10,525 nucleotides of DNA from a virus. The notes beneath the pieces were generated by a model. It worked only from the letters and a program-made list of their open reading frames with translations, made no database searches and had not been told where the DNA came from. Where the stretch lies: the UHGV virus genome UHGV-0185920, one strand, 5' to 3'. Positions 1-8,118 of this stretch are shown one piece after another. The translations under genes and the position numbers were made by a program. The first letter of the stretch is position 1; every line of letters starts with the position of its first letter.

Positions 1-34
1 AAACACACCATATATTGAACGACAAGTAAATCAC

Positions 35-73
35 ATGTCACTCCTAGAATGCGATATCTTTAAGGAGTGACAT
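35..73. terminator. Perfect 11-bp inverted repeat (ATGTCACTCCT / AGGAGTGACAT) with 17-nt loop; possible terminator downstream of the tailspike gene
   Basis: Stem arms at 35..45 and 63..73 read directly from the sequence; lies about 80 bp past the tailspike stop codon; moderately T-rich flanks on both strands. Function inferred. Confidence 0.3.
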
Positions 74-155
74 TTATCTATAACAAATTACTAAAACACC
101 CAAAAAACATAGACTTCAATTGGTAATATTGAGACTTAAGGTGTCAGTAAAATAG

Positions 156-2888
156 TTAATTTGCAAGCTTATTTTCCAGTTCTTCAATCCTCTTTATAAT
201 ATTTTTCTGACGTATACCTAATGCAGCAATCATTAGATACTGTAATTCATCATTTCTGAATGCATAGCGTTCTCCTGCTTCATGCGTAATAGTTATAGCC
301 TCACGAACAAGGTTACCTTCATCATCATAAACAGCTGGATCTGTATCTGTATATGCATCCCATCTGTCATAGCAGATCGCTCCGTATTTAAATGGATCAA
401 GTCCATTCTCTCTGAATATTTCCATTGCCCGTTGCACCGTAAGTCCGGCATGAAGTCTGGCATCAGCTCCCTTATTTTTTACACTATCAAGCCATTGATA
501 AAAACCAATTTCATCAACAAGAGCTAACCCAACCGCCTGCTCTTTATCGGAAAGAGTTCTGACTTCCGTTTTCTCTGTTGCATCAGATGTATTTATAGTT
601 GCAGTCCCTGCGTAGACCTGAGAAAAGCGGTTAACGGACCTTCCAAGTGATACCTGGTTATCAGTTGTTGGCCTTAATGTCGTCGTCGCCCATGTCGATG
701 TAGTATCTTTAGTCGCAGAAAATACTGTTACATTCCCCTGCTTAAGTCTGACGACACCTCCATCTGTAGAGGCAAGTATCAACTCACCAGCCGCAGATGG
801 ACAATCAGCAGCATGGATATCAATATAAGCACCACCCGCAGTATTCCCATCTTTAGAACGGAACTGCATACCTCGAAAGTTTGAGTCGAATACTGCTTTC
901 GTACTTACCCATGAATTATTGTCATGTCCGTAATCTGTATCAAACAGGTTAAGGTTATTTCCATAATTCAACTCGAGGGATTTGGTATACTCTCCAATGG
1001 CTTCGTCAAATATCGCAATAGTAAATGAACCGTGCTCACGGTTAAAGGCGATATCAGTTCCAGCATAATATTGATGCGCGGTTCCGGTATACGGATCGGA
1101 TTCTGCACCATGCACTGGATGGTTGCCAAGAATATCAGACAGGTTTGCTATTCCAAACAGATGCTTATTTCTGCGAGTATAATCACCTGATTTATATGTT
1201 GCGCCTGAATCCCATTCACCACTTGTCGCTGCAAGCGATGTTTTTAACCAATAAGACCTGTTTGTCGGAAGATTTCCCTTGTTATCACCAGTAACAATAC
1301 TTACCCAATTTTTACCACGATGGCTTACAACATCCCCTGCGCTTTTCCATACATCCATAGCACCACAGACAAGTTCATCACCTCTTATTGCCAGCCCTTC
1401 AGGCTCAAAGCTAACCGGAACTCCGATTTTAGAGTCAGAACCATTTAACTGAGTCTCTGTATAAAGTGATGCGGCAAGTGATACAGGAAATGAACGTATT
1501 AGCGTACCACCCATATCATAAATCTGTACTGTCCTTACGCATCTTGCAGGAACGCCACCCCAAATTGTGTAAATATATCTGCTATCTGATGTAATACCCT
1601 GAAGTGTTGCACCATACTGACCTTTACCACGGACAAGTGGAACAGGACCATTAATCGGTCTAACTTTCATTGGGTTAGAAGAAGATTCCACTTCTTTGCG
1701 ATCATATACGTATAAAAAGCGGCCAGTCCCAGCGTTTGATGTCGCAATTAATATGACATATCGCCCATCATTAGATACACAAATACTTGCCCGCTGCGCA
1801 AGGTTAATCAGATTATTATCACCCGGCTCACCAAATACTCGGTAATGAGTTATATCTTCAGCAGATGTTGATGCCCCTTTCCATTTTGTCTTTGAATACC
1901 CCTTCCCTCCTAGAGAGGAACCAGTCTCAGCAATTGTTGTTGTAAACAGATATAGTTCACCGTTCTCTATTGTGGCAGAAAGATCTGAACCGTGACCAAG
2001 AGGCAATGGCTCTGTAAATGTCACAACATAAAGAGTTGAACCATCGCTTGTATAGTGCCACTCACTGATCCTTGTGAGGGTGTCCGTTCCCCAGTTAGAA
2101 CCTCCAACCTGTTGAGTGATAAAAACCTTCTCAATACCTTCATGCCTTACACAAGCTATTCCCTGCAATGCATTTTGTGCATTCGCATATATAGTTGGCG
2201 CATTGATATCATCACCAAAATTCAGGGTCGCAAGTTTTCTTTGTCCAATGGAGAAACTTTGCATCGGCGGATTAACAGAAATGCGAACACCATTACTGAT
2301 TAGAACACCATCACCGGAGAAGCGTGAAATATCTATTTTCGATGCATCAACTATAAACTCACCAGAAGGCACATGAACCAAACCACTATTTCCTGCGCTA
2401 GATGCGGCGTCAAGAAAAGCCTGTGTTGAATCTCTATTCCCAGAGTCATCCGCCCCCCACCCGCGAACGTCTTTATCATCCCGCCATCGTGCAATCTGTA
2501 ATTCAGGGTATTTTTTAGCACCATCAGGATCTTCTAATTGCTGCCGTAACTGATCCGGGTCATACTTCAGCACATTCGGAAAATAGAACTGCTGCGTACC
2601 ATAAGCATCGTACACAGCCATAGAGTGTCCTTTCACAGTAACGAATTTGGCAATCTGTCCGTTATATACAGGATATCCAGCAGCATTGATAACGATTGGT
2701 TGCGAAACAGGAACGTGAGAACCATCTTCATTCTCTACATAAACCTGAATCTGGTTTTCAGGATTTACAGGGTCAGTGTCAATTTTACCGATATAAATTT
2801 TTCCATTAGCTACGGCTTTAAAAGAACGAGCCATAGTGAAGAGTTGAGAAGGCATCCCAATTACAACATTTGGAGTTATATCAGGCAT
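156..2888 (-). CDS. Tailspike protein: P22 gp9-like N-terminal head-binding domain, central receptor-binding/depolymerase domain of unknown specificity, C-terminal peptidase-S74-type intramolecular chaperone domain
   Basis: Minus-strand ORF 156..3041 in the track. From MPDITPNVV through [26 protein letters not shown] to LKYDPDQ the protein matches the P22 tailspike N-terminal domain as I recall it. Start chosen at ATG 2888 (AGGA 8 nt upstream); alternative ATG at 2897; the track Met at 3041 adds 48 residues with no homology. C-terminal SDATEK (Ser and Lys at i and i+5), HAGLTVQ and [10 protein letters not shown] resemble autocleaving tail-fibre chaperone domains. Confidence 0.9.
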
Positions 2889-3235
2889 ATTAGTCATCCT
2901 GTTTGAAAATTTAGATATTGAAGAAAACGGAATGACTGCAGACAAAGATGCAATTGTTTTGAAAAATAATCTTCTATTCACTTTAAAACTATGCAACATG
3001 AACAAAACAATTATTTTACAACAAGCAAGAATCTTGATCAACAGACATATGCTTTATGCGTTTAATGCGTCACTTAAAAATAACAAGTACTACTTTTATT
3101 CCTATCGTCCATGATTTTCATTTTCAAATATTATTAAATAACAATTCCTATTTATAATATCTGTCATTTAATTTGCTCCAGATACAAGGAATCGCTGCAG
3201 CGTGGCCGCAGTGATGCATTATTAATCAAATAAAG

Positions 3236-3250
3236 AGACCACAGTGGTCT
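3236..3250. promoter_or_regulatory. Perfect 15-bp palindrome AGACCACAGTGGTCT; candidate Mnt operator, abutting a candidate mnt promoter (TTGAGG 3253..3258, 17-bp spacer, TAAGAT 3276..3281)
   Basis: Palindrome read directly; it sits 64 bp upstream of the mnt start and its CCAC-N-GTGG core resembles the P22 mnt operator as I recall it. Promoter hexamers are weak matches picked by eye. Confidence 0.45.
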
Positions 3251-3313
3251 TATTGAGGATGCAACCAGCAGATAATAAGATGCCGCTCCACTCACAAAAG
3301 CGAGGCATCAAGA

Positions 3314-3565
3314 ATGGGAAGAGATGACCCGCAATTTAATCTGCGGCTACTTTACGAATTAAAGGAAAAACTAAAACAGCGAGCCAAATCCAATGGCCGC
3401 TCTCTTAATTCAGAATTAGTTCAGATAGTGACTGATGCTGTATCAAAGCCATCCAAAATTTCAGACTATCGAGACGATGCAGAACGCATCGCTGATGAGC
3501 AGTCCGAACTTGTTAGGAAGATGGTGTTTGATACGCTGAAGGATTTGTACAAAAAACCCACCTGA
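3314..3565 (+). CDS. mnt: Mnt repressor (P22 immI maintenance repressor, ribbon-helix-helix family)
   Basis: 83-aa ORF; GRDDPQFNLRL, NGRSLNSELVQIV and DAERIADEQSELVRKMVFDTLKDLYKK closely match P22 Mnt as I recall it, including the C-terminal tetramerisation region; GAGG 8 nt upstream of the ATG. Confidence 0.9.
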   Translation: MGRDDPQFNLRLLYELKEKLKQRAKSNGRSLNSELVQIVTDAVSKPSKISDYRDDAERIADEQSELVRKMVFDTLKDLYKKPT

Positions 3566-3583
3566 AGGTGGGTCCTATTTATT
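3551..3583. terminator. Bidirectional rho-independent terminator between convergent mnt and the lipoprotein gene
   Basis: 7-bp perfect stem ACCCACC (3556..3562) / GGTGGGT (3567..3573) with TGAA loop; A-run on the left (a U-run for the minus-strand transcript) and T-rich tract on the right. The mnt stop codon TGA at 3563..3565 lies in the loop. Confidence 0.6.
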
Positions 3584-4001
3584 AGTCTTGCTTTGTTGAT
3601 GGTATAAGAGATGCGTTTGCCTCTTTTGGCTTCAAGGTATACATCCCACCATTAAAAGGATCTACAGCAAGCCAACCAATTAACCCACCAAACACAAGGT
3701 TTCCACCAATATACCAGCCATTAGCATTGGCTTTGATTGGCAGGGTAACTGGTTCGTACCCATCCTTTTCCATAGTGATCTGGTAGCTCTTTTTGCCAAA
3801 ATAACTACCATCTGACTTGGCAAGAGTTACTCCTTGTGGGGTCTTACCTTGCGCAACAATCACGCCTGATTCGTCTTTTACCTTAAAGCTCGCACCGGAA
3901 GGATTGCTGTTCACTTGCACAAGCTGCGTTTCGTCACCAACAATAGTTGCGCACCCAGATAACAATATAGCGCCAGCAACGACGCCAATAATCCTCTTCA
4001 T
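3582..4001 (-). CDS. Putative lipoprotein with C-terminal glycine-rich (glycine-zipper-like) segment; function unknown
   Basis: ORF 3582..4013 in the track. Signal peptide with lipobox (MKRIIGVVAGAILLSGC) and glycine-rich GGNLVFGGLIGWLAVDPFNGG near the C-terminus. Start placed at ATG 4001 (MKR) rather than 4013; the 4001 versus 4013 choice is uncertain because neither has a strong RBS. Confidence 0.7.
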   Translation of the reverse strand: MKRIIGVVAGAILLSGCATIVGDETQLVQVNSNPSGASFKVKDESGVIVAQGKTPQGVTLAKSDGSYFGKKSYQITMEKDGYEPVTLPIKANANGWYIGGNLVFGGLIGWLAVDPFNGGMYTLKPKEANASLIPSTKQD

Positions 4002-4118
4002 ATCAATTTCCATATTTAAAAAACCGGAAACATCCTAATGACAAACCATTCAAATGTGAAGTAGGCAAAAGATGTTTACTTTTTTCATGGTATCCTGCTC
4101 AAAACTAAGGAGGTTGGC

Positions 4119-4508
4119 GTGAAGCAATTTCTTACTGCTATGTTCTTATTCATATCTTTTGGGGCTACAGCAGAGTGCTGGGTCGTTGGAGATATGCGCG
4201 GAATAAGCTATTCAGAACGAAATAATTTCCATCCGGAAGAAGATGGTTTTAGTGGAACATTCATCATTAAGACAAACGGTGAAGATGCCAGCATCACATA
4301 TTCTGGGACAGATGCGGGCGGCATGGCTTACAAAGCATTGTCTAAAAACTCCATCATAGGAATCGGCGCGAATGGCGAAACTCAACGCGTTATCGACTCA
4401 TGGGTAATACATCCTACTGGAACAGTTTTAATGTCAAAAACCATTTCCGGTTATAGAAATATGGATTCAACCAAAGCTTTTGTTGGAAAAGTAAAAAGAA
4501 AATGTTAG
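4119..4508 (+). CDS. Secreted (signal-peptide) protein of unknown function
   Basis: 129-aa ORF starting at GTG 4119 with a strong RBS (AAGGAGG 4107..4113, 5-nt spacer); N-terminal hydrophobic signal-like sequence MKQFLTAMFLFISFGATA followed by a soluble domain; I recognise no family. Confidence 0.7.
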   Translation: MKQFLTAMFLFISFGATAECWVVGDMRGISYSERNNFHPEEDGFSGTFIIKTNGEDASITYSGTDAGGMAYKALSKNSIIGIGANGETQRVIDSWVIHPTGTVLMSKTISGYRNMDSTKAFVGKVKRKC

Positions 4509-4599
4509 CGATTGAATCCAATTTCCCATACGTTACTGCTGTGTTGCCTCAGTAGCAAACAGCGGTCTGATGGCATTCGCAGCGTTATTTATCGCTCTT

Positions 4600-5646
4600 T
4601 CATAGGCTGGTGTTCAGAACGTTTACCGGAGTGGTATCAGCAAGAGAGGTGTTTACGTTAGCGTAAGCCTTCTCTTCTTTTGTCAGTGACGCGTCATCCA
4701 GTGCAATCGGTTTCGGCGTGATTTCGATGTGAGTACCATCGATCACACGGGTGATTGAGAAAGTCGCATCATCAGTTAGCACGTTCTTCGCCATCTGAGA
4801 CAGGAATTTCACACCAGTGAAACTGATTTTGTCGCCGCGCTTAAATCCGGTGGTGGAGGATACGGTCACCGTTGCAACACGGTTGTCGACGTTCTCTTTG
4901 TTACCATCGGTATCAAGGGTGTATGCCTGCGGCTTAAACTTCTGCGCACCAGAAACAGTTACACCAGTAGCGGTTGACTTGGTAACTGCCGGAAGTTTCG
5001 GTGAGCGAAGAATTTCATCAAAGCCAGCAATCTGACGCTGAATAGTACCGTTGCGATACGCTTCTTCAGGAACGCGACCGAAGATGTCACCATCTACCAG
5101 GTTGCGGCCTGCTTTGCGGTAATCGTCAGGGTTCAGGAAGTAACTGATGCCCATGTCGCGGTTGAGTTCGCGGGAGAACATCAGGCGCTCTGCATCAGAC
5201 ACAAAATCCCAGCCAGACAGGCCAGTAGATGGACCAATTGCGCGGGTATCGTGAACAACAAGTGAGCCCATTTCAGTTGCCTGTTTGGCAATTGCTGACT
5301 CAATGTTATTCGCCAGTTTTTTAGCGGATGCCTGGATGCGGCGACGGTAAGAACGCTCATCACGCAGGTCATCTGCACGAAGCTCGAAGAAATCGTTATC
5401 CGGATCGCCCATGTTGCATTTCACGGAGAGTTCCAGAATCCCAGTTGCGTTGCCAGTTAAATCCCAGCCAGTCTGGGTTGGCGCTTCCTGCTCAACAGGC
5501 ATCCACACGGTGTTGCTTGAACGCCGCATGGATTCTGCCGGAGGGGTGTATTTTGTCACTTTGGACGCCATTGGCGTCAGATTCTGGACGGTTTCGATGA
5601 TTTCATCCAGAGCATACGTGACCAGTTGACCTTCATTTAATGCCAT
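4600..5646 (-). CDS. Coat (major capsid) protein, P22 gp5-like, C-terminally truncated (348 aa versus about 430 aa for P22 coat as I recall)
   Basis: [83 protein letters not shown] and [10 protein letters not shown] match P22 coat; homology stops within a few codons of the stop at 4600. AAGGA RBS 8 nt upstream; the start overlaps the scaffold stop (TAATG). Could equally be annotated as a pseudogene. Confidence 0.85.
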
Positions 5647-6557
5647 TATCGAATTCCTTTATTCAGTTGCGCCTTGAGCTTGCGGTACGTCTCTACATCC
5701 CTTTTGTTTGCTGCCGCTTCCATCTGCTTTTCAATCGCAGAGATATTTGCAGCAACAGCGTGTCCCTGAATTGGTTCATCAGGTAACGGGGCTTCTGAAA
5801 CAGGCTTGGCTCGAGGCTTGAGAGTTAAACGTTCTGACAGTCGAGTGAGTTCAATCAGCGCGGATTGCCCGTCCATCGCCAGCAACTGGCGTGTTTTTTC
5901 AGGATTAGCACCAAGGTGATACATGAGAGCAGCGGATTTCTCCGGGAAGAGGCGCATGATGTCGGCACCGACTGCTGGCGGCACCAGTTGCATGAATGCA
6001 TCCTCTTTCTCCTGATAGTCAGGGATATTGAGCTTTTCCGCTGCGTCGTAGTGCTTACGGGCTGCCTCGACGTATTGCGCTGATTGCTGGGTGAACTCCT
6101 GAGTTTTGCGACCCTGCTCGGCGACAGCCTGGCTTCGTGCGTCCATAGCCTTGATCTGCCATTCACTGTTTGCCTGCTGGAAGGCAGCCAGTGCGCGGCT
6201 CTGGTCATAGTCGTACTTAGCCAGTGCATCTTCGGAAAGATAATCGTTAGGGTCTGGTTGTTTTGGTAACTCAGGGTTCACCCGCAGGTGCTCCGGCAAC
6301 TCTCCACGCTTAACCGCTTCCATCTGCTGCTCAAGCTCACGCTGGCGTTTGCGTTCGATGCGGCGACGGGCAAATTCAGCATTAGTTGCCGGGTCTTGTT
6401 TTGGTTTCTCATCGTCTTTCAGGACAATCTCGAAGCCTTCTTCCTGACCTGCGTTGTCGTTGGCATTATCGACAACTAAGCCATCAGCAGATGCCGCTGC
6501 ATGATTGCCGGGCAGGGTTAATTCTTCAGAAGCCTGAATGTCGGTGGTTTGGTCCAT
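5646..6557 (-). CDS. Scaffolding protein (P22 gp8-like), apparently full length (303 aa)
   Basis: [62 protein letters not shown] and the C-terminal coat-binding region ([16 protein letters not shown]) match P22 gp8 as I recall it; it sits immediately upstream of coat with a TAATG overlap. Confidence 0.9.
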
Positions 6558-6570
6558 GATTAACTCTCTC

Positions 6571-7311
6571 TTATTGAGGTGTCTCGGCTACTCCGCCGGA
6601 GGGGATTTGAACTTGACGCATAAGATTCGCGAAATCCATGCGTTGTGAATGAGTCTGGTCTGCATCTTTAAGAAGCAGCTCAGCGTTAGCACGAGCATCT
6701 TTGCTGCGCTGTTGCTGGAATTGACCTACTAGCTTGAGGTACTCACGCAGTTCTGCCTGCTTGTCGAGGTCCATATTGTTGAAGATTTCTGCAATCTTCG
6801 CGGCGTTGAGTTGGTTTTGGGCTTCAACCTTGGCGGCTTCAACCTGAATCTGCGCCTGTTGGTTCTCTGCCTTGAGCAATTCAGCCTGACCTTGCAGAAG
6901 GATACCCTGCGCCTGAATTTGCTCTGCTGATGGCTGCTGCGGCTGCTGTTGAGCCTGCTGTACCATCTCCATCTCTTCAGGTGTTTCTGGTTTCTTCAGC
7001 CCCATCATCACCAGTTGCTTGTTCGCGTAACGCCCGGTAAGGTGAAACGCGACTTCAGCAGCACCAGTAAATGACTTACCAAGCTGGTTACCAGCCATAA
7101 AACATCGCTCTGGATAGTCATGCCCGGCGTCGATGAACTCACGCTGTTTGCTGTATGGCGTAAATTCATATACCGGAGAAACAGGAGAAGAGTTCTCGGT
7201 AAATATCTCGCTTGAGTCATCAATGCGATATCGGGCGCGTCCTGACGCTTCAACGATTTTATGGTGGATGGAACAGAGTGAAGAAGCCAGAAAATCGCTA
7301 ACCAGCAACAC
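6571..7311 (-). pseudogene. In-frame fusion remnant: large terminase N-proximal fragment (Walker A region, about 7027..7170) joined to portal protein C-terminal fragment (about 6571..7026)
   Basis: The upstream part contains [48 protein letters not shown], a large-terminase ATPase Walker A region. The downstream part is a Q/E/A-rich helical tail ([25 protein letters not shown] ... ETPQ) ending 13 nt before the scaffold start, where the portal C-terminus lies in P22. The first 47 track residues show no homology. Confidence 0.7.
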
Positions 7312-7630
7312 TCAAGAGCTTTCAACGGCTCTTTCATGGTTATCTGAATTCATCATAAAGAACGCCAACCACAAATTCGTTCAGGTTTGGGGGAATGGAG
7401 CATCATTTGACTGCGTTATTCTCCGCAACAGTTATTCGCTGACAGGGCAGCCAGTTCCGTGGCAGTGGTGGAATGACCGCGACGTAAGAACAATCGTCGA
7501 ACTTGGGAAGGTAATAGGATTCGACCCTAAGCGAGATATGCCATTCAAAGGAACTCGCCACAACGCGCTTGATGATGCCATTCACCAAGCCAAATACGTT
7601 TCAGCGATCTGGAAAAAGTTAGCTAAATAA
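7133..7630 (+). pseudogene. DnaQ-like (DEDD) 3'-5' exonuclease, N-terminally truncated (Exo II and Exo III motifs present, Exo I region missing)
   Basis: WGNGASFDCVIL (Exo II-like) and HNALDDAIHQAKY (Exo III-like), plus WWNDRDVRT, match the small phage exonuclease family; no DxE-containing N-terminal segment is found in any frame upstream; the 5' end overlaps the terminase fragment on the opposite strand. Confidence 0.65.
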
Positions 7631-7646
7631 TCAACAGGAGAAAACC

Positions 7647-7943
7647 ATGCCAGCGCCTCTGTATGGTGCGGATGACCCGCGCCGCTGTTCCGGCAATTCC
7701 GTATCGGAGGTGCTGGATAAATTCAGAAAAAACTACGATCGGATAATGTCGCTACCGCAGGAAACGAAAGAGGAAAAGGAATTTCGCCACTGTATATGGC
7801 TTGCAGAGAAAGAAGAACGAGAGCGAATTTACCAGACATCAATCCGACCATTCCGCAAAGCCACATATACCCACTTCCCTGAATATATCGACCCGCGCCT
7901 GCGTAATTACCGCTCACGCTATGGCGCTATCAGTAATGACTGA
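7647..7943 (+). CDS. Hypothetical early-region protein (98 aa)
   Basis: ATG with AGGAG RBS (7636..7640); co-directional and tightly packed with neighbouring genes; no family recognised. Confidence 0.6.
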
Positions 7944-7953
7944 GGAATTTACC

Positions 7954-8118
7954 ATGAGAGGACTTGCATACAATCCCGGCATTCTTCCGGCAGAAATGAT
8001 TATTCGCCAACGCGTAAAGCCAATGCCATCGAGAGAGGAATTGCTTAAGAGAAATTCTTTTCCATCAGTAAATCAAAACAAATATCTGAATGCGATGTGG
8101 CGGAGTGGGAAGAAATGA
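7954..8118 (+). CDS. Hypothetical small protein (54 aa)
   Basis: ATG 7954 with GAGG 8 nt upstream; its stop overlaps the next start (ATGA at 8115..8118). The track reports a longer 105-aa version from 7801 that overlaps the preceding gene; the short form is preferred. Confidence 0.45.

Follow-up and report, generated by a model that had tools for sequence, protein, structure and literature searches.

Escherichia coli carries cryptic lambdoid prophages, such as Rac, DLP12, Qin, and e14. Prophage decay is generally modeled as the outcome of deletions and of the insertion of insertion sequences (IS). We examined a stretch of 10,525 nucleotides (nt) presented as UHGV virus genome UHGV-0185920 (the window, in what follows) with a focus on the region between positions 6,571 and 7,311, where a truncated 3′-5′ exonuclease gene on the plus strand meets a fragment of the terminase large subunit (TerL) gene on the minus strand at a junction that we call J3. 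The window matches positions 492,237–502,761 of the chromosome of E. coli TUM10008 (NZ_CP135658.1) with 100% identity, at a place where a P22-like remnant block of 12.7 kb, including an IS1 element, is flanked by thrS and espL1/yniD. We conclude that J3 is very probably the scar of a deletion of ∼15.9 kb that took place inside an integrated P22-like prophage.

Like these cryptic prophages, this locus is a temperate phage in the integrated state, stripped by internal deletions of its immunity, replication, lysis, and packaging genes; its integrase gene is disrupted by an IS, and its inheritance is vertical. Also like them, it retains some genes of possible use, here those for the tailspike, an acyltransferase, an Arc/Mnt regulator, and a lipoprotein, as well as abc2. 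Unlike them, it derives from a P22-like podovirus rather than from a lambda-like siphovirus, and it is very young. In RefSeq, the block begins with the acyltransferase, the tailspike, an Arc-family regulator, a lipoprotein, and a hypothetical gene; continues with a coat pseudogene, the scaffold, and a “terminase large subunit domain” protein; and ends with a “3′-5′ exonuclease,” abc2, a few small early-left genes, and an integrase gene split by IS1A. The window is near-identical to the P22-like phages IME10, APC_JM3.2, JEP4, and CurroJimenez_Bas106 (Bas106). With members of Lederbergvirus and their relatives (JEP4, Bas106, IME10, Sf6) and with the MS 16-3 prophage, the remnant shares gene order and near-identical sequence in tailspike, mnt, coat, scaffold, portal, terminase, exonuclease, abc2, and integrase. 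Pfam searches on identical loci found virion genes in P22 order: coat (PF11651), scaffold (PF09306), the tailspike head-binding domain (PF09008), and portal. In contrast to P22-like phages, the remnant has no small terminase gene, pac site, portal body, head-completion genes, ejection genes, or early regulatory region. A small terminase with a pac site marks the P22-like group, and all that is left here of the packaging genes is TerL codons 35–82; on its sequence, the remnant is P22-like by descent and not by present function.

The closest intact counterpart is the prophage of E. coli MS 16-3 (the MS 16-3 prophage), an apparently complete P22-like prophage of ∼39.5 kb that lies at the same chromosomal site, in the same orientation, and with the same integrase module. 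Its flanks match those of the remnant, with thrS and the acyltransferase gene on one side and the integrase, espL, and yniD on the other. Five segments of the window align to it: 1–3206 (99.7% identity), 3467–4615 (99.3%), 4612–7029 (99.9%), 7028–7172 (100%), and 7170–10448 (99.7%). Three short overlaps between consecutive segments define three deletions. At J1 (4612–4615), the overlap is GTTC (4 nt) and 7,448 bp are missing; at J2 (7028–7029), it is TA (2 nt) and 2,964 bp are missing; and at J3 (7170–7172), it is ATA (3 nt) and 15,911 bp are missing. Because the remnant is so young, with 99.3–100% identity to its intact sister, every breakpoint can be mapped to the nucleotide.

We placed J3 by base-by-base alignment to Bas106 and to the intact MS 16-3 prophage, as the initial annotation had proposed. 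The two homologies meet at 7170–7172, within the interval of 7170–7185 that it had predicted, and no bases are inserted between them. On the minus strand, positions 7028–7172 correspond to TerL codons 35–82 of 499 (gene nt 101–245), with 100% identity to positions 26748–26604 of the MS 16-3 locus and 99.3–100% identity to nt 567–711 of P22-like phages, such as JEP4 and Bas106, in which TerL occupies nt 467–1966. This fragment gives a weak Pfam match to Terminase_6N, and its first codon, codon 35, coincides with the YEFTPYSKQ start that had been read from the letters. From 7170 onward, the plus strand matches the exonuclease/abc2 region in many phages and prophages at 98–99% identity, and homology to the exonuclease gene begins at gene nt 89. 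Both genes have, therefore, lost their 5′ ends, as had been claimed (TerL codons 1–34 and exonuclease residues 1–30), but they do not stand back to back: the two 5′ stumps are head to head and diverge.

The content of the missing interval can be read from the MS 16-3 map. J3 removed 36 complete genes together with the initial 88 nt of the exonuclease gene and 100 nt from the start of TerL; measured on phage Bas106, the corresponding interval is ∼16.6 kb. The lost early genes are ssb, a Rad52/Erf-like gene, kil, ral, a LexA-family repressor gene, cro, and cII; these are followed by the genes for a replication protein and a DnaB-like helicase, ninB through ninH, RusA, and Q and on the late side, by holin, lysozyme, Rz, rha, and the small terminase. 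The pac consensus AAGATTTATCTG, which lies at nt 269–280 of the small terminase gene in the intact MS 16-3 relative, falls inside the lost interval. The order assumed in the initial annotation, with the early-left and late operons separated by immunity, replication, Q, lysis, and small terminase genes, is the order found in MS 16-3, and the comparison with this intact prophage at the same attachment site, also proposed there, confirms a collinear deletion. A single collinear deletion accounts for the arrangement and has the predicted content, but its size is 15,911 bp and not the suggested ∼20 kb. Between thrS and espL1 in TUM10008, RefSeq annotates no repressor, cro, replication, Q, lysis, or small terminase gene, so such genes are not merely displaced to just beyond the window. 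The statement that the element has no repressor/cro switch, replication, or lysis functions thus holds, with the qualification that an Arc/Mnt-family regulator of the second immunity region is still present. The locus has none of the switch, replication, Q, and lysis genes of a functional temperate prophage, and its integrase is broken.

The exonuclease gene persists as a 5′-truncated stump at 7173–7630 on the plus strand, encoding residues 31–182 with 152/152 identity to the MS 16-3 protein. Its first conserved residues are TGETGEEF, three residues ahead of GEEFSV. The open reading frame (ORF) that carries the stump begins at 7133, where both the ORF list and RefSeq have a chance ATG and 13 codons (7133–7171, in DNA spanning 7133–7172) that derive from antisense terminase DNA. 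The resulting ORF, 7133–7630, encodes a chimera of 165 amino acids (WP_098704034.1) in which 13 unrelated residues are joined in frame to the stump, and chimera residues 14–165 equal residues 31–182 of the intact 182-amino-acid exonuclease at all 152 positions. Against the Pfam profile PF16473 (Rv2179c-like), the window copy covers positions 27–177 (E value 1.2e-56), whereas the intact protein covers positions 1–177.

The missing N terminus bears on activity. The nearest solved structure to the exonuclease is T4 DexA (Protein Data Bank ID code 8KEL; E value 1e-13), with which the D-x-E, FD, and H-x4-D motifs align. The intact prophage protein begins with MNHLMVDLETMG, which holds D7-x-E9, and it spans the whole domain of the DEDDh family with a DnaQ-like fold to which DexA and the Rv2179c-like proteins belong. 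The window copy, compared with DexA, lacks the first 30 residues, including D7 and E9, and begins instead with the 13 unrelated residues. Its Exo I motif (MVD7LE9T, aligned to IID7FE9T in DexA) is therefore lost; Exo II (GASFD, residues 106–110) and Exo III (HNALDD, residues 160–165, both in intact numbering) are kept. The absence of Exo I had been predicted, and the Pfam coverage from position 27 and the alignment to 8KEL agree on it. The key catalytic residues of DexA are given as D7, E12, D119, H186, and D191, matched to D12, E14, D103, H162, and D167 of the DNA polymerase III epsilon subunit (PMC12153337). The “E12” of that paper looks like a misprint for E9, since E9 is the second acidic residue in the 8KEL alignment. 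Because two of four metal-binding carboxylates and the first β-strand are gone, the stump is almost certainly inactive. The product had been called catalytically dead; the motif loss behind that term is confirmed, and it is from the missing motif that we infer inactivity.

On the other side of J3, the TerL fragment lacks its 5′ end through J3 and the 3′ 1.25 kb of the gene through J2. It amounts to only 48 codons because the second deletion, at 7028/7029, fuses terminase to the portal C terminus. J2 spans from terminase codon 83 to the portal gene, and the terminase stump continues in frame across it into the last ∼150 portal codons (the portal C-terminal fragment, 6571–7029, minus strand, supported by the ORF list, RefSeq, and the MS 16-3 alignment). 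The 175-amino-acid product that starts from the ATG at 7098 is annotated in RefSeq as a terminase-domain protein, and most of it is portal C terminus. J1 joins the 3′ end of a gp16-like DNA-transfer gene to the coat gene, which has lost its C-terminal end and is annotated as a pseudogene.

We found no promoter-like (sigma-70) site between 6500 and 7700 and none on the plus strand upstream to position 3000; two terminator-like hairpins lie between plus-strand position 3000 and the stumps. As PL and the late promoter are gone and nothing promoter-like lies nearby, the exonuclease stump, the terminase–portal fusion, and the surviving early-left genes are probably silent, as far as sequence features can predict. 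The surviving early-left block occupies 7170–10448 (99.67% identity to MS 16-3). In it, abc2, an anti-RecBCD gene, adjoins the exonuclease stump and is intact (7647–7943, plus strand; Pfam PF11043, E value 4e-62). At the far end, a 3′ fragment of the integrase gene occupies 10051–10448 on the minus strand, and homology to MS 16-3 ends at 10448, at IS1A. Excision of the remnant is impossible because IS1A interrupts this gene.

How the J3 deletion arose is suggested by the scar itself. Short-homology illegitimate recombination and alternative end joining are known in E. coli from lacI deletions, from lambda bio transducing phages, and from RecBCD/LigA-dependent end joining. The remnant resembles these cases in its deletions of 3–16 kb with overlaps of 2–4 nt, no filler, and no mobile element at the breakpoints. 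At J3 in particular, the flanks are collinear, the overlap is a few nucleotides, and inserted or mobile-element DNA is absent. For random joins, our own calculation puts the chance of an overlap of 4 nt or more (J1) at ∼0.016, of 2 nt or more (J2) at ∼0.16, and of 3 nt or more (J3) at ∼0.05. A search for IS elements and recombination-site remnants, suggested in the initial annotation, turned up no IS, direct repeat, or inverted repeat around J3 and no IS sequence within 7028–7311; no mobile element is closer than the IS1A of the integrase gene, at a distance of 3.3 kb. IS-mediated adjacent deletion was rejected for J3, where no IS end is found and two phage sequences abut directly. With overlaps of 4, 2, and 3 nt, no filler, and no IS or repeat nearby, short-homology illegitimate recombination is the mechanism best supported by the scar.

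The ancestor would have been a prophage nearly identical to the intact one of MS 16-3 and located at the same thrS/espL locus. A short-homology, RecA-independent recombination, either by replication slippage or by microhomology-mediated end joining, would have joined TerL nt 101 to nt 89 of the exonuclease gene through ATA. A single event would have stripped the prophage of PL, PR, and the repressor–cro switch, of cII and the replication genes, of the nin region and Q, and of the lysis cassette, pac, and the small terminase. Being rid of Q and the lysis genes may have been favored, as it would remove the risk of killing by the prophage. The short-homology deletions J1 and J2 and the insertion of IS1 into the integrase gene would have completed the decay, leaving a cryptic remnant incapable of induction, replication, lysis, packaging, or excision and passed on by vertical inheritance.

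Two observations weigh against this account. Forms with only one or two of J1, J2, and J3 were absent (0 of 5,426 complete E. coli genomes), and with no intermediate found, the order and number of the deletion steps cannot be reconstructed. In addition, the terminase endpoint of J3 is identical to the nucleotide in two other deletions that have different partner genes. The first observation bears on whether J3 arose in one step: a single deletion is indistinguishable from nested deletions with the same net result, and the single step is our inference. In a nested series, an earlier and smaller loss of Q, lysis, and small terminase genes would have ended at the same terminase position and would later have been extended leftward to the exonuclease gene. 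Smaller deletions with that right endpoint do occur in other strains, and the remnant did decay stepwise, through at least three separate deletions and an IS1 insertion. However, the second deletion would have had to end exactly at the first junction, the 5,426 complete genomes hold no intermediate, and J3 contains no sequence from an intermediate partner. We consider a nested origin improbable.

A different kind of objection is that J3 is an assembly artefact or the natural, noncanonical gene order of a mosaic phage. Its rarity could be taken in that sense, as TUM10008 is the only one of the 5,426 complete E. coli genomes to carry J3, or indeed J1 or J2. However, in a wider assembly collection, the exact 165-amino-acid chimera is present on 73 contigs and the 175-amino-acid fusion on 109 contigs. 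We read four loci from independent assemblies over their entire length, three of them in NCBI and the fourth in an ENA metagenome, and they show 99.99–100% identity across the whole 10.5-kb window; three of these four contigs end near IS1. Moreover, both genes are cut in mid-domain, none of 50,697 phage records covers J3, and none of the functions that a phage life cycle requires is left at the locus. These data refute an artefact or a mosaic order as far as sequence data can, and we regard either as extremely improbable. A scan for the exact junction in a collection with one genome per species gave no match. The near-identity of the 10.5 kb in four further assemblies and the presence of the chimeric ORFs on many contigs point to clonal inheritance; by this sequence evidence, the remnant is real, recent, and fixed in a clonal lineage.

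The second observation, the shared terminase endpoint, concerns nt 567 in phage coordinates (T567, TerL nt 101), which is the common right end of three deletions with three different left partners. In the window (7170–7172), the partner is the exonuclease gene, and the overlap is TAT (ATA on the plus strand). In a different, heavily degraded P22-like prophage of E. coli E66 (locus positions 6081–6083), the partner is a truncated Q gene, also with an overlap of TAT. In the IMG/VR sequence UViG_2579778654_000005 (locus positions 2193–2194), the partner is the 3′ part of a NinI-like phosphatase gene, the overlap is TA, and the remainder of TerL and the portal gene are intact. The last case was the only exception to the chance matches, among those listed, in 17-nt pattern scans of metagenome and genome collections.

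Truncation at this position has a low background. A 400-nt probe centered on T567 matches 265 records among complete E. coli genomes, and its left half matches 263; among the matches listed, TUM10008 and E66 alone retain the right side while lacking the 200 nt to its left, and their breaks fall on one and the same base. The IMG/VR collection has at least 119 loci in which T567 is intact, none of them with an internal break in the 566 nt upstream. Three control positions yielded no junction and only a single-nucleotide polymorphism. A second common endpoint lies 134 nt upstream, at nt 433 in the small terminase gene (position 26470 of the MS 16-3 locus). It is joined to a truncated helicase gene in E. 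coli KD602 (5001–5005, overlap AAGCG) and to a truncated Q gene in E. coli 2017.18.04CC (5001–5002, overlap AA), with TerL intact in both. All five deletions have a fixed right end, run leftward, and remove the lysis cassette and pac.

Random slippage does not, as a rule, give a recurrent endpoint joined to several partners and would not predict one; the shared endpoint hints at a site-specific break or pause. J3 could then have begun as a fixed break or a stalled replication end at TerL nt 100/101, with the terminase end preserved, the other end resected leftward, and the two joined through 2–3 nt of microhomology. The break might be made by a host nuclease or, on a prophage still integrated, by the phage packaging machinery, and cells that lost Q and the lysis genes would survive prophage induction. 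The use of T567 with exonuclease, Q, and phosphatase partners, the low background of truncations (265 vs. 263 records, at least 119 intact loci, and none at the controls), the second shared endpoint in KD602 and 2017.18.04CC, and the loss of the lysis cassette and pac in all five deletions are in keeping with such a break. So is the report that SOS induction leads P22 to package DNA in situ while the prophage is still unexcised (PMC8575938).

However, initiation cuts by the P22 terminase fall within a 120-bp region around pac (PMC10996546), and the two endpoints lie ∼150 and ∼290 nt downstream of the pac consensus, outside that region. We therefore rejected a terminase initiation cut as the cause. 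A hairpin or cruciform was rejected as well: an imperfect 12-bp stem begins 3 nt past T567, but across both sites, the DNA folds no better than shuffled sequence (z −0.06 to −1.8), and neither site has significant secondary structure. By eye, no convincing Chi-like sites stand beside the endpoints, and the recurrent joins involve no IS. The sample is also small, with three events at one site and two at the other, and the first coincidence was noticed post hoc. An origin of J3 from a fixed break thus seems possible but unlikely. The broader proposal that T567 and nt 433 are preferred positions of DNA ends, with a break or arrest just downstream of pac joined by microhomology to variable upstream sites, is doubtful to a slightly greater degree; as a cause of the recurrence, a packaging-linked break followed by end joining is conceivable. 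Short-homology recombination inside an integrated prophage remains our preferred account of J3.

Two other rearrangements were considered. The P22-like prophage of E. coli EPSSH018 (12887–14697) lacks its early region, beginning at rha and reaching almost to xis, and the junction is occupied by an IS3-family element, an example of similar decay reached by an IS-associated route. IS3-mediated deletion was rejected as the cause of the recurrent endpoints, as the IS3-family element of EPSSH018 lies in the rha region and the terminase there is intact. E. coli SCAID URN1-2021 (H27) was rejected as a second instance of the same junction: its abc2 abuts a 5′ TerL fragment inside a duplicated block, which is a different structure. 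At 11914–13125, this strain has an apparent tandem duplication of the early/replication/lysis block, roughly the complement of the J3 loss, which may be an artefact of a frameshift-rich assembly.

The J3 event is ordinary prophage decay of an already known kind. It documents one step of that decay to the nucleotide (15.9 kb and 36 genes) and offers a natural example of short-homology deletion that is clean because an intact sister prophage exists. It also explains two misleading RefSeq calls, the “3′-5′ exonuclease” (WP_098704034.1) and the “terminase domain protein.” The recurrent breakpoints are the only element of possible wider import and a modest lead: a site-specific process behind them is a tentative and rather unlikely idea. 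If it is real, specific DNA breakage would bias how P22-like prophages become cryptic: a defined event, with a possible link to a host nuclease or to packaging in situ before excision, would repeatedly yield survivors without lysis genes and pac and would be a recurrent first step toward cryptic P22-like remnants.

Several features away from J3 deserve mention. Between the tailspike and the Arc/Mnt-family gene, ∼260 nt (3207–3466) have no match in the MS 16-3 prophage, which holds arc and ant (∼1.4 kb) in their place; either the second immunity region is present here as another allele, or the segment marks a fourth deletion. The integrase gene (from window position 10448 onward; positions 17552–19536 of the TUM10008 locus) reads toward the early-left genes, opposite to the arrangement in P22 and lambda, and is preceded by a small AlpA-like DNA-binding gene at 9863–10093. 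The intact exonuclease gene lies at 10235–10783 of the MS 16-3 locus. EcD (GenBank HAK9828821.1), a bacterial homologue of DexA, has been reported as a 5-hydroxymethylcytosine (5hmC)-specific anti-T4 exonuclease that degrades 5hmC-modified T4 DNA and protects E. coli (PMC12153337), and by analogy, intact copies of the exonuclease in P22-like and lambdoid prophages might be defense genes. The window copy has lost the motif on which activity of that kind would depend. In the DUF551 region (8097–9020), different assemblies show either a single gene of 301–307 codons or a YfdS-like fragment followed by a shorter DUF551 gene; because the DNA is identical, the variation is a difference in gene calling only.

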